DNA of 63,697 nt, the filler included. It is 6 parts of 6 records of this genome, joined end to end, with 100 filler letters (N's around TTAATTAATTAA, not from the genome) between each part and the next. Parts side by side here need not be neighbours in the genome. Positions count along the whole stretch, not along the records: positions 29,653 to 35,992 come from SRR31156797_24779; 5 more parts are not named here. One strand, written 5' to 3'. This document shows positions 3,162 through 63,697 of this stretch, piece by piece. The notes under the pieces were generated by a model. The model did no database searches and was not told the DNA's origin. It saw only the letters and a program-made list of their open reading frames with translations. Every line of letters begins with the position of its first letter. The first letter of the stretch is position 1. Both the position numbers and the translations under genes were made by a program.

Positions 3162-4069
3162 TGGAAAAAGGCCCCTCCTTTATGAGGAAAATAGGTTTTG
3201 TTCTGGAGGCGGCGGCGGTCATTCCCCTGGGGAATCTGGCTGCGTTTATCCCCTTAAAAACCGGAAGGTTTCTGGCCGCGCTTGCGGGCCGGCTCCTCTT
3301 TTTTCTGAACCGGAAGGCATGCAGGCGGGCGGAAAGGAACCTGGACATCATTTATGCCCAAAACCCTCTTGGACCCGTTGAAAAATCGCGCATCATCAGG
3401 AGGCTGTTTATCAATATGGCCGTGAGCGCTTACGAGTACCTCAACATCGGCCGCGTTACGGAAGCCAATTACCTTGACTTTGTCCGCCTGGAAAAGCCTG
3501 GGAGCCTTTTCCGGGCGATCCGTTCCGGCAAAGGCTTTATCGTGGTCACCGCCCACATGGGAAACTGGGAATATTTGGGAAGCATTTCGGCCAAACTGGG
3601 AGAAAATCTGGGGGCGGTCATTCACCGCCAGCTGAATCCCCATACGGACAAATGGTTGCGGAAGATCCGTGAAAGGGACGGCTGGGTAAAATGTTACTAC
3701 GACGAGGTTTCAGACATGCGCGGGATGGTTTCTCACGTGAAAAATGGGGGAACCCTGGCCATTCTTGCAGACGAGCACCGGGCCCGAAACCCGATCCATG
3801 TTCCGTTTTTTGGACGATGGGCCGCAGCCCCGGACGGCCCCGCCAGGCTGCATCTCCGTTTCGGTTCCCCCATTCTGTTTTGTTTTGCCATCAAACAGGA
3901 CGATGGAAAATATCTCTTCACCTTTGACGGTCCCCATGTTTTTAAAGGGACGGGGCATCTGAAAAAAGATTGTGAATATGTGATGGGCCGGATATACCAA
4001 AAGTACGAAAAGGTGATCCGGAAGCATCCGGATCAATGGTTTACCCTTTTAACCGCCAGATGGCCCTGA
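3161..4069 (+). CDS. Lipid A biosynthesis acyltransferase (LpxL/HtrB family)
   Basis: TAHMGNWE catalytic HX4E motif, VPFFG, HPDQW; TGATG coupling with waaA. Confidence 0.88.
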   Translation: MEKGPSFMRKIGFVLEAAAVIPLGNLAAFIPLKTGRFLAALAGRLLFFLNRKACRRAERNLDIIYAQNPLGPVEKSRIIRRLFINMAVSAYEYLNIGRVTEANYLDFVRLEKPGSLFRAIRSGKGFIVVTAHMGNWEYLGSISAKLGENLGAVIHRQLNPHTDKWLRKIRERDGWVKCYYDEVSDMRGMVSHVKNGGTLAILADEHRARNPIHVPFFGRWAAAPDGPARLHLRFGSPILFCFAIKQDDGKYLFTFDGPHVFKGTGHLKKDCEYVMGRIYQKYEKVIRKHPDQWFTLLTARWP

Positions 4070-4076
4070 GGCGATC

Positions 4077-5249
4077 ATGACCCTTGCAATCGTATGCGAT
4101 CGATGGGATAGAAGGGGCGGGGGGTGCGAGCAGTACCTTTCCAATCTGCTGTCACACACGACGGTATCGGGTATCGAGACGCGCGTATATGCCCCACGCA
4201 TCCGTAAGCCGGCCCCCGCGAATGTCCGGAAGATTTCGCGCCTTGGACGTCTAGGCGTATTGAGTAACCGGTATTGCGACAACAACAGTGCCCGGGGTCC
4301 GGCACTGTCCGGAAAAACAATCCTGGCCCTCAGACCGTTTCCCGGCGCGACCCATTACCAGATCCATACCGGGCTCTACGCCTCAACGTTTAAAGCTGAA
4401 AGGGAGTCGTTGCCCTCACCCCTCCGCAGGCTTCTCTACCCCGCGGCCAACCGCCTGAATATCAACCGCCAAAGACTCCTGGGACTGCAGAAAAACTGGC
4501 TGACGGGCCCCCAAAAGCCGTCCATCATGGTCTTCTCTCATCTTACGGCCCTTGAACTAAAACGTAGTTTCCGAATCCCCCTTGAAAAGATCGCCGTTGT
4601 TCCCCATGGCGTTGATCCGGAAAAATTCCACCCCCGGGCCGGGGCTCCATCCGGAACGTCAACCCTCAACAGACCCCGTGGGAGCGGAAAAAGAGCCCTC
4701 CTTCTTTTTGCGGGTCACAATTTTTTCCTTAAAGGCCTGCACTGTCTTCTGGAGGCCATGGGCCGGCTCCGAAAATCAGGAGATGAATTCACCCTTACAG
4801 TTGCCGGCGCCGGGCCGATCCCATACTTCCGACGGCTGGCGGAAAAGCATAAAATAGGGTCACAGGTCACGTTTCTGGGCCGGGTGTCGCAGGATGATCT
4901 TGTCCGTCTCTACAGGGAAAGCGCGGCACTGGTTCATCCCACCTTTTATGATCCCTGTTCCCTTGTGACCCTGGAGGCCCTGGCGTGCGGCTGTCCCGTG
5001 GTGACAACCAAAAGAAACGGCGCTTCCGAGCTCTTTGAATCGGGCAGGGAAGGATTTATTCTGGATGACCCGCGGGATACGGATGCACTTGCCGGTCTAT
5101 TGTGCCGATTCCGGGATCCGCACACAACAAAACAGATGGGTCATGCCGCATCGGAACTGGCCCCCGGCCTGGACCTGAACAGGCACATGCTCCAAGTAAC
5201 CCAATGGCTTGGACTTTCAGGGGAAACCGGGTCTTCCCGCAACCCGTGA
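4077..5249 (+). CDS. Glycosyltransferase family 4 (WaaG-like LPS core)
   Basis: GGGCEQY N-terminus, VPHGVD, KGLHCLLEA, HPTFYDPCSLVTLEALACGCPV. Confidence 0.88.
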   Translation: MTLAIVCDRWDRRGGGCEQYLSNLLSHTTVSGIETRVYAPRIRKPAPANVRKISRLGRLGVLSNRYCDNNSARGPALSGKTILALRPFPGATHYQIHTGLYASTFKAERESLPSPLRRLLYPAANRLNINRQRLLGLQKNWLTGPQKPSIMVFSHLTALELKRSFRIPLEKIAVVPHGVDPEKFHPRAGAPSGTSTLNRPRGSGKRALLLFAGHNFFLKGLHCLLEAMGRLRKSGDEFTLTVAGAGPIPYFRRLAEKHKIGSQVTFLGRVSQDDLVRLYRESAALVHPTFYDPCSLVTLEALACGCPVVTTKRNGASELFESGREGFILDDPRDTDALAGLLCRFRDPHTTKQMGHAASELAPGLDLNRHMLQVTQWLGLSGETGSSRNP

Positions 5250-5250
5250 A

Positions 5251-6699
5251 TTATTTAAGGCCTTCAAAGCATTTACACCAGATAAAATCGACGCTGTTAA
5301 CCGGATGTCCGTTGATCTTAATTTCCATCTTTCCCGCTTGCTGAACGCTCGTGCAATTTGCGATTTTGTTGATATCCTTATTAAAGGAATAAGTATTTAT
5401 GAAAAGCAAATCAAAACCCAAAAGATTTTCATCGCTCCATAAATCAAACTGATCATTGCGTTTGTCCACAACGAACACTCGATTGTCAAATTTTTCATTA
5501 TAAAAATTCGACCTGCTCCCTAAAACCCAGTGATGTACGGCGAGTGCCTTTTTTCGGTTTTCATTTTTTTTCAGCAATATGTTGGCTTTCTCCATGATTT
5601 GATCCCAACCGTAAATATCCTTCAAGGGATGATTCGGGTGCGGAAAAGGGATGAGTTTAAAGATCAGTTCGCCATAAACAAACAGTGTCAGCATGAATGT
5701 TATCAGAACAGACCATCGGCAAAAATTTTGCAGATATTTTTTCCCGCTGATCAAAGCGTAATAGACACCCATGGGGATAAAAAGAAAATAAAAGGTTAAA
5801 CTCCAATGGGGAAGGTTATAAGAGAAAAAACTTGAATACAGGAAAAAAATGAGATTAATGACACCCACTGAAACAAAGAGCCGAACAACCTTTCGCCTGT
5901 CCGTCAATGCCCTTAAAAAACCGTAGAAGGCCAAAGCAAACAGAAAGGGGCTGTAAGCGGCAAATTGTGCAAAAATGGATACGCCGAAGTTTTGCCAGCC
6001 GAATACCCTTTTACCCAGAACATGGTCAAACTGATAATTAAGACTCACCCATTCATTGACGGCATTCCAGTAAATAACCGGCAGAATCAATATGAGAGCA
6101 ACGACAACCGTTACAGGAACATATGGATGAAACAGAATATCCCATCTTTTCTGCCATATAAAAAAGAGCAGGATGGACGGCAGCAACAAGACCGCGGTAT
6201 ATTTCGACAACCCGGCCAACCCAAGGGCCAGGCCCAACAAGACGAACTGTTTTAAACTCGGATTCTCCTCCAATTTCAGGATCGCCAGTATGACCAGCAG
6301 AACAAATAAGATGAGCAGGCCATCGGGCATGAACATCAATGAAAGGGCCGCGATCATAAAAGCGCTGTTGACGGCGATGATGGCCAGGGCCAGAATCGTT
6401 GTGGATCCGGTTATCCGCCTCAGAAGGAGATAGAGGGCAAAGGAAGAGGCGGCGGCGATGAGGATGGCGGGCAATCTGAAGACCCGTTCGGAGGTCCCGA
6501 TAAAATGATAAAACAGGGCCTGAATCCAACCGGTCAGGGGGGGATGGTCGTAGTAACTCCAATCAATATATTTGCCGTAGAGCACATAGTGCGCTTCATC
6601 GACGCCCAAGCCGAAAAAGGGGGAGATAAACAACCTGATTGAGGTGAAAATCAAGATTGTGCCCCATATTATTCGGTTATTTGATAAACAGAGCTTCAT
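5251..6699 (-). CDS. ArnT/PMT-like (GT-C, GT39/GT83) polytopic glycosyltransferase
   Basis: DEAHY..YYDHPPL loop, RLPA, GLAGLSKYTA, many hydrophobic helices. Confidence 0.85.
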   Translation of the reverse strand: MKLCLSNNRIIWGTILIFTSIRLFISPFFGLGVDEAHYVLYGKYIDWSYYDHPPLTGWIQALFYHFIGTSERVFRLPAILIAAASSFALYLLLRRITGSTTILALAIIAVNSAFMIAALSLMFMPDGLLILFVLLVILAILKLEENPSLKQFVLLGLALGLAGLSKYTAVLLLPSILLFFIWQKRWDILFHPYVPVTVVVALILILPVIYWNAVNEWVSLNYQFDHVLGKRVFGWQNFGVSIFAQFAAYSPFLFALAFYGFLRALTDRRKVVRLFVSVGVINLIFFLYSSFFSYNLPHWSLTFYFLFIPMGVYYALISGKKYLQNFCRWSVLITFMLTLFVYGELIFKLIPFPHPNHPLKDIYGWDQIMEKANILLKKNENRKKALAVHHWVLGSRSNFYNEKFDNRVFVVDKRNDQFDLWSDENLLGFDLLFINTYSFNKDINKIANCTSVQQAGKMEIKINGHPVNSVDFIWCKCFEGLK

Positions 6700-6777
6700 G
6701 TTTTATGTTGAAAACGGCTGAAAAATGTAAGGGAAGCGTTTCCCGGCGCAAAGGGCCGCGCATTTTCGTCCGTATGT

Positions 6778-8355
6778 TTATTCACGGAAAACCAGCTGGA
6801 AGAGGATCATCTCCCCGGTGGCGGGATGATGCCAGCGGCCCAATTCTTTGAAGGCCTTTTCAAAGGGTTTGTCAACCAGGTCCAGTTTCCCATCGGGCCA
6901 ATGTTTTTCCTCCCATACAAAATATCGGACGCCTTTTTGTTTGAGGTGTTGCACGAATCCGTTTTCGTCGTTTTTAAAGGCCCGGCCGTCATAATCATAT
7001 TGTTGGGCACAATGGGTTCCCCTGTAATTCAAATTGGCGTAAAACGGAATCCATGGGGGAGAACACTGGGAAGTGGCTATGGCGATTTCTCCGGTTCCAT
7101 CTTCTTTGGAGGCGATAACCGCTGCGATTTCCTTGAAAACAAGTTTGTCGCCCCCCCTGGGCATGAGGTCATTGGGCAGGGCGAAAGCCAACACCAGGAA
7201 AAAAACAAGGGTTAAGGCCGTTTCTTTTTGCAGCCCTGATTTTGATTGGAGAAAACGGAGAATTTTTTGCAGGCCCAATCCCGTGAAGATTGAACAAAAG
7301 ATAATTAAAACGATCATATGCCGATATGCGAGGGTCCAGGTCAGCAATGTGTGAAAATACAATATCAACAGTGCGAAAAAAATCAGCATGGAGAAATAGA
7401 TGATGCGACGATCTTTTTTGATGCTGTTCCCCATCCCGACCGCTCCCAAAACAACAATTACAAAATAGGGGAAGAAAAAAGCTTCCAGGGAACGATTCAG
7501 CAGGGTCCCGATGGTGATCAGCCAGATGTTGTTTCTCGCCTCCGGGAGGAAATATTTCATAATGTCGTATGAGGTATGGTGGACCATATCGGTCAATATG
7601 AATTGGAGGAAATGATAGTTATCAAAGGCAGCCCATATTCTCAACGGAATTTCGTGGAAGCGGAAGATTTCTATAATGGGCCAATTGAATGCCATTTGGG
7701 CCGCAAAAATCATGAGTGTGCCCGTTAAAAGCGGGAGAATAAAGACAAGGGTTTTTTTGAGCCGATGATTCTGTTGGACGGCCATCAGATAGAAACACGA
7801 TATGGGGATCAAAAAAACGGCTTCCACCCTGGCCCATGCAGCCATTAAAAAGCAACAGCAACTGAGAATAAGGGAGGCGCCCTTTCTTTTTTCCCTTTGA
7901 TCCACAAAAAAGTAGAGCCCCAGAGTAATGAAAAACCAGGATATGGGGTCCCTTATGACATAGGCACTGCTCCATACCAGGACCGGCGTGAGGGCGATCA
8001 CCAAAGTGGCGAGCAAACCGATTTCCGTGTTAAAAAAGGATCTTAACAGAAGATAGAGCGGCATCAGCGCGGCAAAACCGAAAAGCAATGAAACGAATCT
8101 GGCGGAGGCGACCCAGTCGCGAAAAATCGAATATGCGCCGGCAATCAAAAATGGATAACCGGATACGCCGGGTACATGGCAGGAGGAGATCTCCTTCCAC
8201 TGGCCATGATAGACGGCTTTCGCCTGGCAAATATATTTCGCTCCATCGGGATTGATAATCATTGTATTCTGGCAGGAATGGAGACGAATGAGGAACGCCA
8301 GCAGGAAAACAAGGATGATCAGCATGGAGGGGTGATGTCTTTTTGGTTCGGACAA
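6778..8355 (-). CDS. ArnT/PMT-like (GT-C) membrane glycosyltransferase
   Basis: PDGAKY, GYPFLIA, ARFVSLLFG, VIRDP, ARVEA motifs; many TM helices. Confidence 0.75.
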   Translation of the reverse strand: MSEPKRHHPSMLIILVFLLAFLIRLHSCQNTMIINPDGAKYICQAKAVYHGQWKEISSCHVPGVSGYPFLIAGAYSIFRDWVASARFVSLLFGFAALMPLYLLLRSFFNTEIGLLATLVIALTPVLVWSSAYVIRDPISWFFITLGLYFFVDQREKRKGASLILSCCCFLMAAWARVEAVFLIPISCFYLMAVQQNHRLKKTLVFILPLLTGTLMIFAAQMAFNWPIIEIFRFHEIPLRIWAAFDNYHFLQFILTDMVHHTSYDIMKYFLPEARNNIWLITIGTLLNRSLEAFFFPYFVIVVLGAVGMGNSIKKDRRIIYFSMLIFFALLILYFHTLLTWTLAYRHMIVLIIFCSIFTGLGLQKILRFLQSKSGLQKETALTLVFFLVLAFALPNDLMPRGGDKLVFKEIAAVIASKEDGTGEIAIATSQCSPPWIPFYANLNYRGTHCAQQYDYDGRAFKNDENGFVQHLKQKGVRYFVWEEKHWPDGKLDLVDKPFEKAFKELGRWHHPATGEMILFQLVFRE

Positions 8356-29715: not shown

Positions 29716-30099
29716 CTAACCGTTAACTACCTGCAGCTGTTTTTTTACAAATTCCAATTCATTTTCTGATTTAGTAACAGCCTGCTCAGCCAAAGCCTGA
29801 GCGCAGAAGGTAAGCATAACATCCGTATCCAGTCCCAGCAGAATGGAGCCGTTGGAAACTATGCAGGTCTCACCCTGATCTTCCATCAGATACGCTCTCT
29901 TGTCGCGCTCTTCACCATTTCTTGTTGCAATGGAATAGCCTGTGCGCCCCTTTTCGGTACTGTAAACCTTCTCAGAAACCAGCTCCCCGCTGTCTTCATT
30001 GTAATTGAGGGATTCATTTTCAAGTTTTCCGACAAAGGAAATCTGGCCGCCAAAATCATTTTCCAGAGTCACCCTTTTAAGGGCAGCTGACTTTTTCAT
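29716..30099 (-). CDS. Hypothetical protein (127 aa)
   Basis: AAGGA RBS, protein-like composition, 22 bp downstream of the HTH gene; no recognisable motif. Confidence 0.75.
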   Translation of the reverse strand: MKKSAALKRVTLENDFGGQISFVGKLENESLNYNEDSGELVSEKVYSTEKGRTGYSIATRNGEERDKRAYLMEDQGETCIVSNGSILLGLDTDVMLTFCAQALAEQAVTKSENELEFVKKQLQVVNG

Positions 30100-30121
30100 G
30101 ATCCTTGTCCACCGATGTTTC

Positions 30122-30379
30122 TCAAATGGGCAGTTTCAGTTGCTCAGAACCCTTCTTGTCATCCTTCCCCTTCTTGGGGGCCGCCTGCAAACCGGACTCA
30201 ATATATTCCAGCAGGGAACTTTCCGGCACACGCCACTGGCTGCCAACTTTGATACCGCGGATTTTTCCCTCCTGAACCAGCCTGTAAGCAGTTCTCGGAT
30301 GGATTCTCAGCGTGTCGGCAATCTCACGCACCGTGTATAGCATGGGCGAAGGAGTCAAAGCCTTGTCCTGATTTTTCAA
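30122..30379 (-). CDS. Excisionase/BldC-like HTH_17 DNA-binding protein (start may be the later ATG of MLYTV)
   Basis: LYTVREIADTLRIHPRTAYRLVQEGKIRGIKVGSQWRV matches the HTH_17 pattern. Confidence 0.88.
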   Translation of the reverse strand: MKNQDKALTPSPMLYTVREIADTLRIHPRTAYRLVQEGKIRGIKVGSQWRVPESSLLEYIESGLQAAPKKGKDDKKGSEQLKLPI

Positions 30380-32385: not shown

Positions 32386-32655
32386 TTAAAGTCCCAGCTT
32401 TTTAATCCTATCCTCAGGCTTGATGATCTCGGTAACCCTGAAACCAAAATTCTCATTGATTACAACTAGTTCACCGCGCGCAACCAAACGCCCTTCAACA
32501 TACATGTCCAGCGGTTCCCCGGCCAGTTTATGCAATTCGATAACTGTACCTTGACCGAACTGGATAATTTCGTTGACCAGAAGCTTGGTCCGCCCCATTT
32601 CAACCTTAACTTCAAGGGGAATATCCAGAATGCGTTTCAGACTTTGCTCAGCCAT
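32386..32655 (-). CDS. fliN: Flagellar motor switch protein FliN (SpoA domain only)
   Basis: ILDIPLEVKVEMGRT..GTVIELHKLAGEPLD..VARGELVVINENFGFRVTEI. Confidence 0.92.
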   Translation of the reverse strand: MAEQSLKRILDIPLEVKVEMGRTKLLVNEIIQFGQGTVIELHKLAGEPLDMYVEGRLVARGELVVINENFGFRVTEIIKPEDRIKKLGL

Positions 32656-32754: not shown

Positions 32755-33390
32755 TTACTTGACTCTTTCCACAGACGGACCAGACTCTTTCTGCGGTTGC
32801 AAAGCAAGAATTGCATCCGCGCTTTCAGAAAACAAATCCAGCGGATGATGACTGATAACCAAAACCTGAAAGCCCAACCGCTCCGCAATGGTCCCAATCA
32901 ATTCCATGAACCGGGGTACAAGATCAGGCCGCAGCCAGCAATCCTGCTCGTCCAGCACCAGAAAAGGCCGATGTGCTTCCGGATTCAACCTCGACAAAGC
33001 AATAAGCCTCAGTCCTACAGATAAAATATTACAAACCGAGCCGCCCTGCCCGACCATGATGTCTTCTTCGCCACCCTGATTCAAAATCTGAAAATCAACC
33101 TGCAATTTCTTATCGCGGATAGAGGCAACAGCCTTAACTTCGCGATCCTGTCCCAGAATTTCACGGATGGCATGAGTCAGGTTAGTCTCAAGTTCGCTCA
33201 ACAATTCCCCGAACAAGGCGGTCGAAAGTTCTTCCAGCCGCTCAGCCGCGCCCGGGGCCAGTTCCAGAAATTCATCAATTTTACGGCCCGCTTCACGCAA
33301 GGACTGCCAATCTTCCATACGTGACGAAGCCTTCGCGCTTAAGCGGTCAGCTCTGCGCTCTAAAGATTCAAGTGTTGGAAGATCTGCCAT
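32755..33390 (-). CDS. C-terminal half of a Rad50/SbcC-type ABC ATPase
   Basis: N-terminal helical stretch, then signature-like GQGGS, SVGLRL, Walker B FLVLDEQ, H-loop VLVISHH; no Walker A. Confidence 0.85.
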   Translation of the reverse strand: MADLPTLESLERRADRLSAKASSRMEDWQSLREAGRKIDEFLELAPGAAERLEELSTALFGELLSELETNLTHAIREILGQDREVKAVASIRDKKLQVDFQILNQGGEEDIMVGQGGSVCNILSVGLRLIALSRLNPEAHRPFLVLDEQDCWLRPDLVPRFMELIGTIAERLGFQVLVISHHPLDLFSESADAILALQPQKESGPSVERVK

Positions 33391-33707
33391 TAATTATTGC
33401 CTTCTAAACTATCCAAGCCTTCTTTAATGGACATGATATGCTTACGGTACTCAGTGACCAGCCGTGCATTTTCAGCCTTTTTTTCTTCCAGCAACTTACT
33501 CAATTCCTGAGGATTGCTGGTGCCATATTGGGCCTTGGCTTCTTCTTCAAGGGCAGCAAGCTGACTGGTAGTACTGGCTAGTTCCTGTTCAGTTCGGATT
33601 TTTTTATCGTGCAGCCATTTGTGCTGATCCTTAAGAAGGTTAAGTTCCTGTTCCAGACCATTCGCAGGCTGATTTGCGCCGTTGTTCATTCCATTACCCA
33701 TTGCCAT
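33390..33707 (-). CDS. Small coiled-coil protein (105 aa)
   Basis: Two heptad-rich helices separated by YGTSNP; overlaps both neighbours. Confidence 0.8.
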   Translation of the reverse strand: MAMGNGMNNGANQPANGLEQELNLLKDQHKWLHDKKIRTEQELASTTSQLAALEEEAKAQYGTSNPQELSKLLEEKKAENARLVTEYRKHIMSIKEGLDSLEGNN

Positions 33708-34647
33708 CGGTGACCTCCGTATACAATTCCCAGATGAGCGGGCTTTCCGGCTCTTCGGGGTCGATATTATCTGTTAAAAACTGCTTAAGGCCTTCGCCTT
33801 CATGGGTTCGTTTCCATGCAAGACGTTCAAGACCCTGTAAAAATTTTGATTCCGCTGTTGCTGCATCTTCAGCCTCAGGCAAAAACTCCTGATCCGGAAA
33901 AACTTCGTAAAAATCGCGATGCGGAATTTCCCATTTATCAAGATCATCACAATCGGGAGTCCAGATTCCTGCCTGCGGTTTGCGCTCAAGGGACCGCCGC
34001 GAAAAAACCATCCGGCTAATATTACCGGGATTGGCCCATGTAGTCATACCCTTGGTAATTGAATCTCGCGGACCATGGATATGTCCGTTGATAATCCAGT
34101 CTATACCCGGTTTTTCTTTAATGGCGTGCTGCTTTTTCTCGCACTCAGGAAAAGAAATATTGTGATGGGTCACCCAAACCACTTTTAAATATTTCCCGTC
34201 TTCACGCTCAAATTCTTTTGGGATAGGTGTGGAATCCGGAGATGCGCCAATCAGCACCACCCCCTGCGGGGTTTCCAACTCAAAGGCCGGCCCTTGCTCA
34301 CTGATCAAGTTAATTACTCCGGCAGCATCAAGCACGGCCATGGAAACATCCGGGGTAAAGCGGGCCTGATATTTATCATGGTTGCCCACCAGCACGAACG
34401 GTTTGTACTGTGCAAACAGCCCGATCATATCCACCAATAGGGAGTTACCGTTATCGCGCGGCCAATGAAAAAGATCGCCAAGGATAAGCGGAACCATGTC
34501 CAGTTCCGCAGCATATTTGAAACAAGCTTCCAGCTTATCCAACACATCGGCGGCGAAGTCGCCGAGCCGCTGGCCCGGAGGAGTTGAAGCTATATGCGGG
34601 TCCCCGATAAGAAAAAGACCTTTAGCTTCTACTTTCTCAAGACTCAT
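33694..34647 (-). CDS. Mre11/SbcD-like metallophosphoesterase nuclease
   Basis: GDPH, LGDLFH, VGNHD, VTHH, NGHIH, NPG phosphoesterase motifs; sits between the ATPase halves. Confidence 0.88.
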   Translation of the reverse strand: MSLEKVEAKGLFLIGDPHIASTPPGQRLGDFAADVLDKLEACFKYAAELDMVPLILGDLFHWPRDNGNSLLVDMIGLFAQYKPFVLVGNHDKYQARFTPDVSMAVLDAAGVINLISEQGPAFELETPQGVVLIGASPDSTPIPKEFEREDGKYLKVVWVTHHNISFPECEKKQHAIKEKPGIDWIINGHIHGPRDSITKGMTTWANPGNISRMVFSRRSLERKPQAGIWTPDCDDLDKWEIPHRDFYEVFPDQEFLPEAEDAATAESKFLQGLERLAWKRTHEGEGLKQFLTDNIDPEEPESPLIWELYTEVTDGNG

Positions 34648-35977
34648 GACTATCCTCCCCGATCAACTTTTGCGCATCCAGATCACCGCCGCAGAGCGGA
34701 CAATTGCCAATCTCATCCAGACGATTCTCAATGCGCTGCTTGAGTTCAGCTTCGGACTCTTCCAGTTCGATCAAACGGGACTGCGCTTCAGCCTGCGCTT
34801 TTCGCAAGGCTGACAGATTATTCATAACCTGCATAAGATTTGAAAAATCGTGAAGTTCCGGCGGCTCTACCAACGGAGCCAGTACAGCAGCACGCCGTGA
34901 AATATTATCCCGGACTGCATAGTTGCGGGAAACATTGCTGATGGTTGCGGAAAGAACTGAAACATCTTCAAGCTCCGGCGGAGAAGCAAGCTGTTCCAGC
35001 ACCTTACGCCGTGCTTTTTGCTTATCTTCGGCAAAGGAAAGTTGATTTTGCCGCACAAGGTCCGCTTCCAGCCGCTGCACCGGAAAAAGTTCCGGCGGAG
35101 TTTGCAATCCGCCAAGGGATTCAGAACTTTTTTTCAGCCGCTGCTCCTGAGTACGCAGATTTTCCATACCCGAAACCACTCGCTCCAGCGGTGCGGAAGG
35201 AAAAAGTTCCGGTGCTTCTCTCAATTCAGACAATTCCTTTTCACGCGCGCCAAGGCTGCCTTTGTAGTTTTCCAGCTCCCCCTTACACTGCAAGAGTCCT
35301 TCAACCGCCGGGATTTCCTTATCAAAGACATCTATCTGTCTTTTAAGTTCGTGGGCGGTTTCCAGTTCCAGACTCACATCCGGCAAGGTCTGCAATTCAT
35401 CAAGCTCAACACGAATTTCATCAAGTTTCTGTTGCTGAAACTTCTTCTCCCGCTTGGCAGCACGGACCCGATTTTTTAGTTCGGTCTGCATAGCCAGCAA
35501 ATGCGAAGCTTCGGAAGATGAAGCAAAAAACTGAGCCGCAACAGACGAAGGCTGGTCGAGCAGAAAGATAGGATTACGCTGGTTACCAATATGTACATCC
35601 AGTGACTTGCCGCCTTCCAAGGGGACCTGATTGAGTCGCAGAATATTTAAAATATCTTCCGGGGTATTACGCCCGAATTTTGCATAAACTTCCCATTCCT
35701 CTTCGCCCGGACGCAGTACTTCGTACCAGGCAGTAGCCTTTTTGCGAATCCACGCAACGCGCACGCCATCATCCATTTCCAATTCAACACGGGCCTGCTT
35801 GGCACCATGGCGAATGAAATGTTTAGGCAGCGGATTGGTCGCAATGCAGCGCAAAGCCTCAACAACCGAAGATTTACCGCTGTTGTTGGGACCGGTCAGC
35901 ACGGTCATGCCCGGACCGAGTTCAATCTCGGTTTCCGCATGGGCTAAGAAATTTTTTAGTAGGATTTTTTTGATCAT
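34637..35977 (-). CDS. N-terminal half of a Rad50/SbcC-type ATPase with helical arm and terminal zinc hook
   Basis: IKKILLKNFLAH, Walker A GPNNSGKS, FIRHG, Q-loop GNQ, long helical region, CPLC at residues 426-429 of 446; no Walker B or signature. Confidence 0.9.
   Translation of the reverse strand: MIKKILLKNFLAHAETEIELGPGMTVLTGPNNSGKSSVVEALRCIATNPLPKHFIRHGAKQARVELEMDDGVRVAWIRKKATAWYEVLRPGEEEWEVYAKFGRNTPEDILNILRLNQVPLEGGKSLDVHIGNQRNPIFLLDQPSSVAAQFFASSSEASHLLAMQTELKNRVRAAKREKKFQQQKLDEIRVELDELQTLPDVSLELETAHELKRQIDVFDKEIPAVEGLLQCKGELENYKGSLGAREKELSELREAPELFPSAPLERVVSGMENLRTQEQRLKKSSESLGGLQTPPELFPVQRLEADLVRQNQLSFAEDKQKARRKVLEQLASPPELEDVSVLSATISNVSRNYAVRDNISRRAAVLAPLVEPPELHDFSNLMQVMNNLSALRKAQAEAQSRLIELEESEAELKQRIENRLDEIGNCPLCGGDLDAQKLIGEDSHES
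34851..35220 (-). repeat. Intragenic 117-bp (39-aa) periodic repeat, four PPEL-type units
   Basis: APELFP, PPELFP, PPELED, PPELHD each exactly 39 residues apart; the DNA core AG(T/C)TCCGG(C/T)G recurs every 117 bp. Confidence 0.85.
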
Positions 35978-58594: not shown

Positions 58595-58688
58595 GGGAGG
58601 ATAGGTATCTGCTAAGCTTTTTTTTTAGTTTATTTTAAATTTACTTATTGATCGAAGCATGGATTTTATTAAAAATAGGAGATAATCA

Positions 58689-59939
58689 ATGAAGAAATAT
58701 GATGTAAATAAACTGCCAAATTATGCTTTGGCACTTCTGATTTTCGTACCATTGCTTTTTTTATTAATATTAGGAATAGCGAGTATTGCCAGTTCAGGGC
58801 TTAGTAGTGCACTAGCCAAGGGACAGATAATCGGGTTATACCTGGCTCAGAGGCAGATAGCTTTTGCACTTTTGGGGATATTATCAATGCTTGTTTTAAC
58901 CTTTGTTATACCATATACTTTTTTTCAGAGGTATGAGGTACTTTCTCTAATGTATTTTGGACTTGTAGGAGCTTTGTTATATGTAGATTTCTTTGCTCCG
59001 ACTATCAAAGGTGCTAGGAGATGGATCAGGTTAGGGCCTGTAAATGTTCAGCCATCAGAGTTTGGAAAGATAGTATTTGTTATTTTAGCAGCGAAACTTT
59101 TTTCAGAGATGGAAAAGCATGAAGTTAGTGTTGGCTTTAGAGAATTAAAAAGATATTTTCCTAAATTTATATTATTAGCTATTGTTCCTTTTCTTGTAGG
59201 AGTAGGAAAAGATATGGGAACAGTTCTTCATTATTGTATTATATTTTTCGCAATGTTATTTGTATCAAAAATAAAACTCAGATATATTCTTACACTAATC
59301 CTTCTAGGAGGTTTTTTAGTAAGTGTAACTTTAGTAAATGAGTATAACTCAAATAACTTCCGTAGTAAAAGAATGAAAGAATTTATAGACGGACATAGAG
59401 AGAATGGTTACGGTGGAGGATATCAGACAATACAGTCAGTTATCGGTATCGGTAACGGTGGTTTGTTTGGTAAAGGTTTTGGTAACGGTATCCAGAAATA
59501 TAGTTACGTTCCGGAGATACACACGGATTTCATATTTTCAACTATAAGTGAAGAGTTTGGATTCTTAATGTCATTCTTGATCTTTCTGGCTTATGTGAGT
59601 ATATTTTACTCCGGCATAACGATAGCCATTAGGTCGCGGAACTGTTTTGCAAAGTTCTTAGCGACTGGAATTATATTTAAAATTGCCTCTCAGGCATTAG
59701 TTAATATATATGTAGTATCAGGTCTTATACCTGTAACGGGAATTCCATTACCATTCTTAAGCTATGGTGGGAGTTCGGTAGTATCACTGATGACATCTAC
59801 AGGATTACTGCTTAGTATAGTTAAATATAGTAATGATCAACAAGTCAAAACGACTCCGGAATTTGTCCTATCACCAACGGAACCGGAAGAAGACTACTTG
59901 AACGATAACAGTGAATTAGAGATTAAAATTAATAGATAA
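58689..59939 (+). CDS. FtsW/RodA/SpoVE (SEDS) peptidoglycan polymerase
   Basis: GARRWI, QPSEFGK, KDMGT, GYQ..QS, PEIHTDFIF, EEFG, GIPLPFLSYGGSS. Confidence 0.94.
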   Translation: MKKYDVNKLPNYALALLIFVPLLFLLILGIASIASSGLSSALAKGQIIGLYLAQRQIAFALLGILSMLVLTFVIPYTFFQRYEVLSLMYFGLVGALLYVDFFAPTIKGARRWIRLGPVNVQPSEFGKIVFVILAAKLFSEMEKHEVSVGFRELKRYFPKFILLAIVPFLVGVGKDMGTVLHYCIIFFAMLFVSKIKLRYILTLILLGGFLVSVTLVNEYNSNNFRSKRMKEFIDGHRENGYGGGYQTIQSVIGIGNGGLFGKGFGNGIQKYSYVPEIHTDFIFSTISEEFGFLMSFLIFLAYVSIFYSGITIAIRSRNCFAKFLATGIIFKIASQALVNIYVVSGLIPVTGIPLPFLSYGGSSVVSLMTSTGLLLSIVKYSNDQQVKTTPEFVLSPTEPEEDYLNDNSELEIKINR

Positions 59940-59949
59940 AATAATATAC

Positions 59950-59976
59950 AAACCTTCGCAATTGCGAAGGTTTTTT
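59950..59976 (+). terminator. Rho-independent terminator
   Basis: AAACCTTCGC-AATT-GCGAAGGTTT followed by Ts. Confidence 0.8.
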
Positions 59977-60094
59977 CTATTATAGAACAAATTTGAATAT
60001 ATAATAGATGAATTCATAAAGGAAATTAAAAATTAAATTAATATATGATATACTCTAAAAAAATAGTGTATGTAAAATAAAATTTGGAGGGAAA

Positions 60095-63043
60095 ATGAAA
60101 AGGATATTAGGATATTTACTATTGATTGTTTTTTTACCGGTGACAATTTCAGCTAGAAGCTATTTACAAGAAATTGAATCTAATTTTATTTATTCAAACT
60201 GGACTTATAATAAAGGATTTCCAACGAATAATGCACTAGATGTATACCAAAATTCTGAAGAGTATATTTGGATAACAACTTATGAGGGTTTGATTCGATT
60301 CGATGGAAAAGAGTTTAAACTATTTAACAAATTTAGTGGGGAAGGATTTGAATTTAACTCAGCAACTACTCTGTTTGAAGATAGCCAAAATAGACTTTGG
60401 ATAGGAACAAATGAGAATGGAATAGCATATTACAAAAACGGAAACTTTTACTCTTTAAACTCTTCGGACGGTTTTAATTCCACATCAATAAATGATATAA
60501 AAGAAGATAGTCAGGGAAATATCTGGGTTGCAGGAGCAAACGGATTAACTGTATTAAAAAAGTCTGATAATTCCGAAACTTTTGAAATAAAGGAAATAAT
60601 TAAAAACGAATATTCAATTAGCCAGTTAGCTTTTTTGAATTCAGAGGAAATCTTGTTAATTACGGGAAATGGAAAGTTATTAACCTATAGTGATGGAGGA
60701 ATTAACGATTTTTTGCCTGAGAATGACTCACTTCAAAACTATAAATATCAAAGTCTAATGATAGATTCTAATGATAATAAGTGGTTTGGAGCTACATCAG
60801 GTGAAATTATAAAAATTAGTAAAGATAAAAAAGTTGAAATCTTCAAAAATGAAGGTATTTTTTCTATTAATATGTTGCTGGAGGAAAGCAATAGAAATTA
60901 TGAAAAACTTATAATATTTTGTTCTGATAACGGAGTAGGAGTATTTGATGAAGAGAATAACAGATTTGATCTTGTAAGAAAAAGTGATGGATTAATAAGT
61001 AACTCAATTGAAAGTATATTTCTAGATAGAGAAAAGAATATTTGGCTGACTTCTAAAAGAGCTGGTTTACAAAAAATAACTGTTGGGAAATTTAAAAATT
61101 ATAAGAAAAAAGATGGTTTGCCTGACGAAATAGTAAATACTATCGAGCAGTCTGCCGCTAATGAGTATTGGATTGGAACGAATCAAGGTTTGGCAATTTT
61201 AAAGGCTGATAAATTTGAAAAAAACAGATTTACCGATTATTTTAATAATACAAGAATTAGACAAATATTTGAAGATAGTGAAAATACTATGTGGATATCA
61301 ACATATAGCAATAAAGCTCTAGTGAGAATAAAGAATAATCAAATAAAATCATTTAATACTGAAACAGGTCTGGCATCTTCAAAAGTTAGAGTTGTATTTG
61401 AAGATTCAAAGGGTTATATCTGGATTGGAACTACAGGTGGATTAAACGTAATTAAAAATCCGCAAAGTGAAGTGATTGAAATTGAAAAAGGACCGGGAGA
61501 GCTAGCTTCTAGTTATATAATGTGTATAGCTGAAGACAATGAGGGAAACATTATAATTGGAACAAACGGTAAGGGGATATATAGTTTAGATTCAAATTTT
61601 AATATTAGAAATTACACCAAAAGTAAAGGATTATCAGGAAATGTTATATTTAAAGTTTTCTATGATTCGCTTGGGAATGGATGGATCGCAAGTAATGAAG
61701 GAGTAAGCTTATGGGCTGAAAATAGATTTTATAACTATACAATTAACAATGGTTTGATGTCTAATGCAGTTTATCAAATTATAGAGGATAACAATAAAAA
61801 GCTATGGTTTACTAGCTCTAAAGGTGTATCATCCGTAAAAATAAAAGAGTTGATTGCAAAAAAAACTGATTATTCAGGAAAGTTGAATATGGAGAAATAT
61901 GATCTGACAGATGGTTTTCTCGAGAGCAGTACTGCGACGTCGTGGGGGATTAAGGATAGAAACGGAAAACTTTGGTTTCCAACTTTGAAGGGAGTTTCGG
62001 TATTAGATATAAATAATTTATCTTTAAATTCCAGAACAAACAGAGTAGTTATAAATGAAGTTAATATAGATGGAAATAATTATTCGCCAAATAGTGAAGT
62101 GATAGTTAATCCTAGTGATAGAAGAATTAGATTTAAATTCGCAGCATTAAGTTACTCTAATCCAAGCAAAATTAAGTACAGCTATTATTTAAGCAATTTT
62201 GATACAACATGGTCTGAGCCGTCATATGAGCAGGAAGCAGTTTATACTAATCTATCACCGGGAAGTTACACATTACATGTTAAAGCTTCAAATAGTGACG
62301 GGGTATGGAGCTCGGATTCTATTAAATATTTTTTTACAAGGAAAGCAGCATTTTATGAAACAGTATATTTTTACTTGATAATAATTATTTTGATCGTTTC
62401 ATTTGTGACGGGAGTATTTTTGGTTAGAATTAATAGGCTTAATGCTAAACGAAAATTAATCTCAACTATGTTAGAGGATACAATCACAGCACTAACTAGT
62501 GCAATAGATGCGAAAGATTCATATACAAAGGGACATTCGCTTAGAGTTGCAGAGATCTCTCAGAGAATAGGAGAAGAGCTGAAATTAGATGAAGAAAGTC
62601 TTAAAGATTTGAGATATACGGCTTTACTCCATGATATAGGAAAAATAGGGGTAGATGATAGAATTATTAGAAAAAGCGAAAAGTTAACAGATGAAGAGTT
62701 TTCTAAAATGCAGGAACATCCAATAATAGGTGGAAATATCCTGGATAAGGGTTCACTGAAAAGATTCTCGGAAGGAGCACGATATCATCATGAGAAATAT
62801 AATGGTAAAGGTTATGGTTATAAAAAACAGCTGTCTGGCGATAGTATTCCAATATTTGCAAGGATAATATCTGTTGCTGATGTGTATGATGCTCTTATGT
62901 CGGATAGACCATATAGGAAAAGTTTGGGGAAAAAAGTTTCTCAGGAAATAATTAATAAAGACTCAGGAGAGCATTTTGATCCAAAAATAGTAGAAGCCTT
63001 CAATAACATTATTGATGATTTAGATGATTTGAAATTTACATAA
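60095..63043 (+). CDS. Beta-propeller (Reg_prop) and Y_Y_Y sensor fused to an HD-GYP phosphodiesterase
   Basis: Repeated EDS.G.IWIGT..GL blades, YTNLSPGSYTLHVKA, one TM, DAKDSYTKGHS, LLHDIGK, HHEKYNGKGYG, ADVYDAL.SDRPY. Confidence 0.9.
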   Translation: MKRILGYLLLIVFLPVTISARSYLQEIESNFIYSNWTYNKGFPTNNALDVYQNSEEYIWITTYEGLIRFDGKEFKLFNKFSGEGFEFNSATTLFEDSQNRLWIGTNENGIAYYKNGNFYSLNSSDGFNSTSINDIKEDSQGNIWVAGANGLTVLKKSDNSETFEIKEIIKNEYSISQLAFLNSEEILLITGNGKLLTYSDGGINDFLPENDSLQNYKYQSLMIDSNDNKWFGATSGEIIKISKDKKVEIFKNEGIFSINMLLEESNRNYEKLIIFCSDNGVGVFDEENNRFDLVRKSDGLISNSIESIFLDREKNIWLTSKRAGLQKITVGKFKNYKKKDGLPDEIVNTIEQSAANEYWIGTNQGLAILKADKFEKNRFTDYFNNTRIRQIFEDSENTMWISTYSNKALVRIKNNQIKSFNTETGLASSKVRVVFEDSKGYIWIGTTGGLNVIKNPQSEVIEIEKGPGELASSYIMCIAEDNEGNIIIGTNGKGIYSLDSNFNIRNYTKSKGLSGNVIFKVFYDSLGNGWIASNEGVSLWAENRFYNYTINNGLMSNAVYQIIEDNNKKLWFTSSKGVSSVKIKELIAKKTDYSGKLNMEKYDLTDGFLESSTATSWGIKDRNGKLWFPTLKGVSVLDINNLSLNSRTNRVVINEVNIDGNNYSPNSEVIVNPSDRRIRFKFAALSYSNPSKIKYSYYLSNFDTTWSEPSYEQEAVYTNLSPGSYTLHVKASNSDGVWSSDSIKYFFTRKAAFYETVYFYLIIIILIVSFVTGVFLVRINRLNAKRKLISTMLEDTITALTSAIDAKDSYTKGHSLRVAEISQRIGEELKLDEESLKDLRYTALLHDIGKIGVDDRIIRKSEKLTDEEFSKMQEHPIIGGNILDKGSLKRFSEGARYHHEKYNGKGYGYKKQLSGDSIPIFARIISVADVYDALMSDRPYRKSLGKKVSQEIINKDSGEHFDPKIVEAFNNIIDDLDDLKFT

Positions 63044-63053
63044 ATTTAAATAT

Positions 63054-63092
63054 AAAAAGAACAGTCCTGCTAATAAAACAGGACTGTTTTTT
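63054..63092. terminator. Bidirectional terminator between convergent genes
   Basis: A-tract, AACAGTCCTG/CAGGACTGTT stem, T-tract. Confidence 0.8.
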
Positions 63093-63498
63093 ATAATTTT
63101 ACGTATAACTCTTTTTCTTCTTTTGACATTCTAAGCTCAAGAGCTCTTAAAATATTAGTTGTATCTCTTTTGAAATTATTCTCATTTCCTACTATTTTTG
63201 TTGCAATATTATATTTATCTTTATACTCCGTAAAAGTTCCTGCTAATCCACCCATCTCGTTTTCAAATCTTTCAGCTAATCTTTTAGTAGCTAAATCTTC
63301 ACTATTTCTTAGTGTTGGATATAGGTATTTATCTTCTGATGCTAAGTGTACTTTTAATTTACCAGCTAAGCTGTTTACTTTCATTGCGATATCTCTTGCA
63401 TTATCTGTAATGTTTCCTGATTTAATAATATCCTTTAAATATACTATAACCTCTTCTATATCTCTGTGTTGTCTTAAATAATTGTTTAAATTTGACAT
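63091..63498 (-). CDS. Hemerythrin-like four-helix protein
   Basis: QH, HLASEDKYLYP, RMSKEEKELY; GGAGG 9 nt before ATG 63498. Confidence 0.82.
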   Translation of the reverse strand: MSNLNNYLRQHRDIEEVIVYLKDIIKSGNITDNARDIAMKVNSLAGKLKVHLASEDKYLYPTLRNSEDLATKRLAERFENEMGGLAGTFTEYKDKYNIATKIVGNENNFKRDTTNILRALELRMSKEEKELYVKL

Positions 63499-63697
63499 TT
63501 TTACCATCCTCCGAATTTTTTATTTTTGCGTTCCCGCTTTTCTTGTAATAAGTTTATCAAAATAATTAAAATATGGCGGTAACGGATGTTACACAGTGAA
63601 AAATTTCTTTAACTAATAGATTATACTCATAATATTATATAAAAACAAGTCAGATTTTAAAATTAATGATTTATAATGATTGTCTAAATCTAAAGCA

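Follow-up and report, generated by a model that had tools for sequence, protein, structure and literature searches.

In Rad50 and SbcC, as in the SMC proteins, a long arm doubles back and thereby brings the two ends of the chain together in one ATPase head. In canonical Rad50 a single chain runs through an N-terminal lobe (N-lobe), an ascending coil, a central zinc hook, a descending coil and a C-terminal lobe (C-lobe). What becomes of this design when the two lobes are encoded by separate genes, and when no chain carries the way back? The question is raised by an operon of four genes, here termed g1 to g4, located at positions 32755-35977 of a stretch of DNA of 63,697 nucleotides (the window, in what follows). 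The window consists of six contigs joined by N spacers, with the operon on a 6.3-kb contig (29653-35992). Its source organism is a Maridesulfovibrio, the genus that holds the closest proteins (about 86-87% identity for g1, about 93-94% for g4). Motifs, profiles and gene neighbourhoods lead us to the view that the operon probably encodes one SbcCD-like, ATP-driven nuclease that would process DNA ends and hairpins, with a head assembled in trans, a hook at the terminus of its arm and a role in genome maintenance.

The four open reading frames (ORFs) lie on the minus strand and overlap in their coordinates by 11 bp (g1/g2), 14 bp (g2/g3) and 1 bp (g3/g4), while the contig ends 15 bp upstream of the start of g1. 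A preliminary description of this DNA had listed these overlaps and this contig end, together with the motifs of g1, g2 and g4; ORF coordinates and translations place all of them where it had put them, every detail that could be checked being right (Table 1). In Pfam, g1 matches AAA_23 (1.1e-14), and its profile retrieves from solved structures the heads of Rad50 (1.7e-7) and its zinc hooks (6zff, 3.5e-4; 1l8d, 7e-4), the Pfam family Rad50_zn_hook giving a weak match, under its cut-off (0.008). Seven residues (K35, S36, Q133, C426, P427, C429 and G430) are invariant in 28 aligned g1 sequences. The matches of g4 in Pfam are weak, and confined to the C-terminal parts of SMC_N and AAA_21; D147, E148, H181 and H182 are invariant in 15 sequences of this protein. 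The motif set of an ATP-binding cassette (ABC) head is thus complete and invariant, and it is divided between two genes, with Walker A and the Q-loop in g1, and the signature, Walker B, the D-loop and the H-loop in g4.

The arm, too, departs from what is familiar. The AlphaFold2 (AF2) model of g1, with a predicted local distance difference test score (pLDDT) of 73, assigns residues 1-150 to the N-lobe and residues 156-250 to a helix 95 residues long; helices 262-288, 301-328, 340-366 and 379-423 follow, separated by linkers of 11-12 residues, and the hook comes last. The repeat pattern R-x3-L-x2-L-x2-PP-x-L sits in these linkers, with a period of about 39 residues. One repeat unit is absent from four of the 28 aligned sequences, and an additional one is present in three, while the lengths of g1 at 58 loci fall into classes of 407-412 residues (nine loci), 431-458 (37), 486-499 (six) and 526-528 (six), which suggests that the number of repeats goes from about three to six. 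The CPLCG motif, constant in 28 of 28 sequences, would provide the CxxC that is expected at the apex of a zinc-hook arm. In contrast to canonical Rad50, two chains share the lobes between them, only 17 residues of g1 follow the hook and a descending coil is present on none of the four chains: no intramolecular antiparallel coil can join the lobes, because g1 stops 17 residues past CPLC and because g4 has only some 65 residues before its C-lobe. It had been suggested that g3 might supply part of the returning coil. This idea is weakened by the way the arm of g1 appears to vary, in steps of about 39 residues that neither g3 nor g4 follows (r = 0.23 and 0.10, respectively, against g1 length at the 58 loci). 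A return coil contributed by either of them is disfavoured because such a strand would have to change its length with that of the arm.

The second gene, g2, would bring the nuclease. Its motifs, read from the translation and invariant in homologues (GDPH, GDLFH, GNHD, THH, GHIH and NPGN), cover motifs I-V of the calcineurin-like phosphoesterases (DxH, GDxxD/H, GNHD/E, H, GHxH), and Pfam recognizes it as Metallophos (3.2e-9). The nearest solved relatives of its profile are Mre11 of P. furiosus (4.5e-8), Mre11/SbcD of T. maritima (1e-5) and SbcD of E. coli (3.4e-3), the top 10 rows of that search being Mre11/SbcD-type nucleases from P. furiosus and T. maritima (4.5e-8 to 8.3e-4), which bears out its earlier assignment to the Mre11/SbcD type. 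The 11-bp overlap with g1 sets it next to an ATPase gene, as expected of the Mre11/SbcD-type operon partner of a Rad50/SbcC protein. Taken alone, g2 gave no useful match by phmmer against the PDB, and none to the SbcD model TIGR00619 at E <= 0.1. Amphipathic stretches are conserved in about its last 60 residues, the region where Mre11/SbcD proteins have a helix-loop-helix that binds the Rad50 coiled coil at its base. The third gene, g3, is conserved across 29 aligned homologues, including the break EYGTxDP in the middle of the protein. Library scans including Pfam, PADLOC and NCBIfam returned for it no family above the curated cut-off and no convincing match, and its matches in the ESM Atlas are apparently its own clusters only, together with an automatic name of doubtful value. 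In a complex prediction of g1, g4 and g3, the score of g3 as a partner was 0.23 (the mark being 0.34), a value that bears on binding neither way.

An ATPase delivered in two pieces, neither of which reaches the curated cut-offs for Rad50 or SbcC, might be seen as the decaying remnant of a broken sbcC, its halves being non-functional. The relatives of the operon make this hardly credible. Separate proteins of about 445 residues (g1) and 215 residues (g4) are found throughout the Desulfovibrionaceae, and g4 is better conserved than g1 (about 60% against 40% identity in Pseudodesulfovibrio). Both pieces are intact, and their catalytic residues stay invariant from genus to genus, at 40-60% identity. 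In species-representative genomes a scan retrieved 264 loci, the best 80 of which were used for all counts of context, the order of genes in relatives being mapped by hidden Markov models (HMMs) and tblastn. In 67 of these 80 loci the order g1-g2-g3-g4 is kept on one strand. The other 13 comprise nine loci cut by the end of a contig, two with over-long ORF calls, where tblastn finds a normal order, and two with g4 alone; in one of the latter two genomes g1, g2 and g3 stand together on another contig. Since g4 stands intact apart from the three others, it is therefore a free-standing, movable gene, and the fact that it stays intact even when relocated is not what decay would leave. The preliminary description had argued, from the two intact genes between the halves, that the split was no frameshift, and had let its reading depend on a gene order conserved in relatives and on halves that do not decay; both are found, the split being kept in the 67 loci just cited. 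The four-gene arrangement is far from chance.

The neighbourhood is that of a housekeeping region. Upstream of the operon, relatives carry a small methyltransferase (37 of 80 loci), MurJ (31 of 80) or Fpg (26 of 80), and in Maridesulfovibrio the genes found downstream encode FliN and a glycosyltransferase of the PMT type. The split operon belongs to the core chromosome, not to an island. An ATGA overlap at the edge of the contig had been taken as a hint of further components upstream. This expectation finds no support in relatives for which upstream sequence is available: what they show there is the methyltransferase, MurJ and Fpg, and the closest relative has a 27-bp gap before g1. Between g3 and g4, some relatives have a gap of about 1 kb (L018, L026, L039, L048, L049, L077 and L168). 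At L168 the gap holds, at 5382-6257 and on the strand of the operon, the gene of a 291-residue membrane protein with the pattern EEFGWRGW...LWH, which we take to be that of a CPBP/Abi intramembrane protease. A 320-residue N-terminal extension of g4, considered for some relatives, was rejected as an alternative-frame artefact lying over a gene for a putative CPBP-type membrane protease inserted between g3 and g4.

If the operon acts as SbcCD does, one may ask whether the two are found together. Related loci led to five genomes, of which four bear titles that call them complete or chromosome-level; none of the five has SbcC (TIGR00618) or SbcD (TIGR00619) over cut-off, while the controls are positive in 13-14 of 14. 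A family sample of 201 genomes, in which SbcD-like genes were called at E <= 1e-8, gives the g4 profile in 74 genomes, an SbcD-like gene in 106, both in three and neither in 24. In one of the three genomes with both, the SbcD match is a 94-residue frame with a stop. The two systems are thus nearly exclusive (Fisher p = 3e-29, a figure to be read with the reservation that related genomes are not independent). Phylum-wide, the g4 profile was found in 14 of 401 sampled genomes, always in short frames. We read this distribution as a replacement, in which the four-gene operon would stand in for SbcCD in one part of the Desulfovibrionaceae.

The family extends well beyond this group, and its wider members tell what kind of split we are dealing with. 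Against 1.84 billion representatives the g4 profile matched 1591 proteins, 546 of them at <= 1e-10. When the best 150 of the 1591 are sorted by length, 51 have at most 300 residues, seven have 389-531 and 92 have at least 570. In every one of the 92 long proteins the g4-like part is N-terminal; a Walker A follows at residues 200-300 in 88 of them, and a CxxC lies within the last 60 residues of all 92. The order of Pfam families in the long members sampled, the C-terminal part of SMC_N and then AAA_23, is that of a circular permutation. The AF2 model of one such protein has a pLDDT of 82, and its best Foldseek hits include both the N-lobe and the C-lobe chains of P. furiosus Rad50; model residues 218-369 superpose on the N-lobes of Rad50, SMC and RecF with Z of 10-12 and a root-mean-square deviation of 2-3 Å. 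That an ATPase head encoded in two genes would assemble in trans, as had been proposed, gains support from the existence of these natural one-chain homologues, whose predicted model matches both lobes of Rad50. The accompanying image of an ordinary Rad50 cut at its hook has to be abandoned: the wider family is permuted, with its C-lobe first, its hook last and a return coil on no chain.

Gene order tells a consistent story. In a set of 80 metagenome loci the fused ORF is present in 74. Where there is room, a gene resembling g2 follows it (66 of 67 loci) and one resembling g3 precedes it (63 of 72). The fused layout, g3 - [g4::g1] - g2, is thus one of three genes, of which the order g1-g2-g3-g4 in the window is a cyclic rotation. 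The two operons share homologous g3, g4, g1 and g2 parts, a C-terminal hook and this cyclic order, and the arm consensus of the fused form has, as in g1, periodic breaks marked by prolines; they differ in that g4 and g1 make one polypeptide in the fused form, whereas in the window the ATPase is cut between its lobes and the order rotated. Judged by profiles and gene order, the split layout belongs, as one of its forms, to a wider family that has no name. A concatenated tree of the g4 part, the N-lobe of g1 and g2 (92 loci after de-replication at 90%; FastTree, LG model, midpoint root) makes the split loci (52) and the fused ones (40) reciprocally monophyletic, with supports of 0.999 and 1.0, the direction of change not being polarised. 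As far as this phylogeny can tell, one event separates the two forms. The alignment of the fused form found no relative among viral contigs, and g4, compared by tblastn with phage records, gave one marginal match only.

Some members of the family depart from both layouts. At loci L101-L103 the fused operon is enlarged, with an ATPase of 966 residues and a g2-like protein of 815-818 residues that has about 330 extra residues at its N-terminus. In a third architecture (P0243 and P0245-P0248, with 43-50% identity to g4) an N-terminal g4-like C-lobe is followed by an extension of 270-300 residues, the g4-like proteins with such a C-terminal extension measuring 475-531 residues; a scan of P0243 gave no Pfam family, and none is precomputed for P0245-P0248. 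In P0241 (503 residues), known from a single metagenomic contig, PAS and GAF domains follow the g4-like C-lobe, which may be a real fusion or an artefact of assembly or gene calling.

The fused form, common in metagenomes, is also common on megaplasmids, being carried by 22 plasmid records, all of them non-mobilizable and from 253 kb to 1.3 Mb in size, mainly from Bosea, Rhizobium, Variovorax, Pseudomonas, Vibrio, Aeromonas, Alteromonas, Methylorubrum and Acidiphilium. The trio of g3, fused ATPase and g2 was present in each of the three megaplasmids inspected, its products annotated merely as 'AAA family ATPase' and 'metallophosphoesterase'. Near it lie helicase and topoisomerase genes in two plasmids (Pseudomonas and Vibrio), a DNA polymerase gene in addition in that of Vibrio, and a gene for a ligase of non-homologous end joining (NHEJ) in Bosea. 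Such company, and the size and non-mobilizable nature of all 22 plasmids, would suit a factor for the replication or segregation of large replicons, which might resolve or protect particular DNA structures of big chromosomes and megaplasmids without the end processing typical of SbcCD. We find this quite unlikely: the genes present are just those that make up an Mre11-Rad50 nuclease, their nuclease motifs being intact, the mutual exclusion of SbcD and the operon speaks for a shared task, and large plasmids simply hold more genes.

The same plasmids may be invoked in favour of defence, since defence against phages or plasmids by an SMC/Rad50-like system that senses foreign DNA ends and leaves their destruction to g2 would resemble what is known of Lamassu. 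LmuB, like DdmC, is an SMC/Rad50-like defence ATPase with both lobes on a single chain, and its partners are LmuA and LmuC. The best PADLOC match of g1 is indeed LmuB (PDLC03859, 6.3e-19, residues 2-436), and covers the N half of LmuB only, while g4 has a weak match to mad3 of the MADS system (1.3e-6). PADLOC yields zero families for g2 and g3, however, and no partner resembling LmuA or LmuC was found at the operon, which, in contrast to Lamassu, does not sit in a defence island. Its housekeeping synteny is conserved, with no variable island; it is present in one copy per genome and widely kept in the clade; it nearly excludes SbcD; and the helicase, topoisomerase, DNA polymerase and NHEJ ligase genes next to the megaplasmid trio are not known defence genes. 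A defence role therefore seems to us unlikely. The preliminary description had left the choice between a nuclease for repair and one directed against plasmids or phages: repair is now favoured, while defence has become less likely with the core-chromosomal location of the operon and its near-exclusivity with SbcD.

The SbcCD-like nuclease that we prefer has to face several difficulties of its own. Both g1 and g2 are far under the curated cut-offs for Rad50, SbcC and SbcD (the best NCBIfam Rad50 model gives 60.7 bits, against a cut-off of 1000) and are hence distant relatives; the match of g1 to a Lamassu ATPase is the best that PADLOC offers; the presence of fused relatives on megaplasmids makes a replicon-directed role conceivable; the exclusivity between SbcD and g4 may go back to a single ancestral event or to a few, the genomes being related; and 24 of the 201 family genomes have neither system. 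We have filed the operon as a variant, and not as a member of Rad50, because the layout that defines Rad50, a single chain whose antiparallel coil has the hook at its centre, is missing, and because all curated thresholds failed.

The operon can now be set beside systems already described. It resembles Rad50-Mre11/SbcCD (E. coli, P. furiosus, T. maritima) and gp46/gp47 of T4 in three respects: the ABC head is bipartite, the helical arm carries a CxxC zinc hook, and a gene of the Mre11 type lies next to that of the ATPase; it differs from canonical Rad50-Mre11 in its arm, a variable array of repeats of about 39 residues, and in the additional conserved subunit g3. A precedent for separate lobes may come from a phage. 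Yoshida, Claverie and Ogata (2011, PMC3175470) list gp8 of Bacillus phage 0305phi8-36 as an Mre11::Rad50 fusion for which one P-loop NTPase segment 'was not observed'. This protein combines Metallophos, a Rad50 N-lobe and an arm; three genes downstream, the 236-residue 'ATPase' gp5 matches the g4 profile (hhalign 91.7%). It appears, from this profile match, that gp5 is the 'missing' Rad50 segment, a separately encoded C-lobe. The phage differs from the operon of the window in that its nuclease is fused ahead of the N-lobe and that an extra gene, coding for 238 residues, lies in between. A comparison of gp7 with the g3 profile was not significant (hhalign 15.6%), the shared pattern KVR-E / G-x-DP being suggestive only. 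PHROGs keeps the two halves apart, one as phrog_16465 and the other as phrog_15167. A split or permuted Rad50 is described nowhere in the literature searched, which included the consulted portions of PMC5105663, PMC3175470, PMC7824862 and PMC1193525, Krishnan et al. 2020 (NAR 48:10045) and its supplements being outside that search; the split four-gene layout appears to be undescribed.

How would such a machine work? The Rad50 subunit would be delivered as two polypeptides. From g1 would come the N-lobe, a one-way arm made of repeats of about 39 residues and the CPLC hook at its C-terminal tip, and from g4 the C-lobe, behind a short helical stub. We infer that g1 and g4 physically dock into one ABC head, that two such heads engage on ATP, which they would hydrolyse, and that a dimer of g2 acts as the nuclease. 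The tips of two arms would be tied together, their CPLC motifs sharing a zinc ion. The repeat region of g1 may pair, in parallel, with the same region of a second g1 chain, an arrangement in which lengths would always be matched, and the stub of g4, about 65 residues long, could be the partner of the g1 helix at its base, a role that in Rad50 falls to the end of the descending coil. As for g3, it would be one more small subunit, and an obligatory one. In this lineage of the Desulfovibrionaceae, the core-chromosomal operon would serve genome maintenance in lieu of canonical SbcCD. A bolder picture can be drawn from these steps, which we put forward as tentative and somewhat doubtful: that of a Rad50-type machine devoid of the intramolecular antiparallel coil by which the family is usually defined, with one-way arms of interchangeable 39-residue modules paired in parallel and clamped by zinc at their tips, with g3 as a new obligatory subunit, and with split and fused forms linked by a cyclic rotation of the operon, in which the operon would have been duplicated in tandem and then have lost its ends.

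The surroundings of the operon in the window deserve a few words. The FliN-type protein encoded directly downstream of g4 is 100% identical in the four closest relatives (tblastn), and its linkage to the operon is confined to Maridesulfovibrio (8 of 80 loci). Further along the contig, at 29716-30379, an excisionase-type HTH_17 gene (85 residues) and a gene of 127 residues without a family are found in relatives together with the gene of the PMT_2 glycosyltransferase. The contig that closes the window (58595-63697) has a G+C content of 30-36%, against 43-60% elsewhere in the window; its source may be a different organism, or a mobile element in the bin.

Table 1. Coordinates of the four genes, of their motifs and of related features. 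Positions are those of the window, except for the last line, where they are those of locus L081.
Feature	Position	Strand	Length or basis
g1: Rad50/SbcC-type N-lobe, helical arm and C-terminal zinc hook	34637-35977	-	446-residue ORF
g1, Walker A GPNNSGKS	35870-35893	-	translation; invariant columns
g1, Q-loop GNQR	35576-35587	-	translation
g1, arm with four repeats of about 39 residues (R-x3-L-x2-L-x2-PP-x-L)	34778-35248	-	alignment consensus
g1, CPLC zinc-hook motif	34691-34702	-	followed by 17 residues to the C-terminus
g2: Mre11/SbcD-like metallophosphoesterase	33694-34647	-	317-residue ORF
g3: conserved helical protein, family-less	33390-33707	-	105-residue ORF
g4: Rad50-type C-lobe behind an N-terminal helical stretch of about 65 residues	32755-33390	-	211-residue ORF
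g4, signature-like GQGGS	33037-33051	-	translation
g4, Walker B/D-loop FLVLDEQDCW	32935-32964	-	translation
g4, H-loop ISHH	32845-32856	-	translation
FliN-type gene, stand-alone, directly downstream of g4	32386-32655		89 residues
Phage 0305phi8-36 cluster: gp8, gp7, gp6 and gp5	3990-8026 (L081)		gp7, 92 residues; gp6, 238 residues

The way in which an ATP-driven change is transmitted through the arm and the zinc hook of Rad50 to the nuclease is debated, and it is in this debate that the split and permuted family may find its use. With a head made of two chains or permuted, a hook that is the end of a chain and an arm whose length comes in modules of 39 residues, this conserved and widely distributed family is an experiment made by nature, able to tell what in the arm is indispensable, while the operon itself would be a small complex, easily dissected for structural work. 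For the trio annotated as 'AAA family ATPase' and 'metallophosphoesterase' on the megaplasmids of Pseudomonas, Vibrio, Rhizobium and others, it offers a first functional guess. As for the sulphate reducers themselves, an apparent gap would be filled: a large group of them, seemingly living without SbcCD, carries this operon instead.

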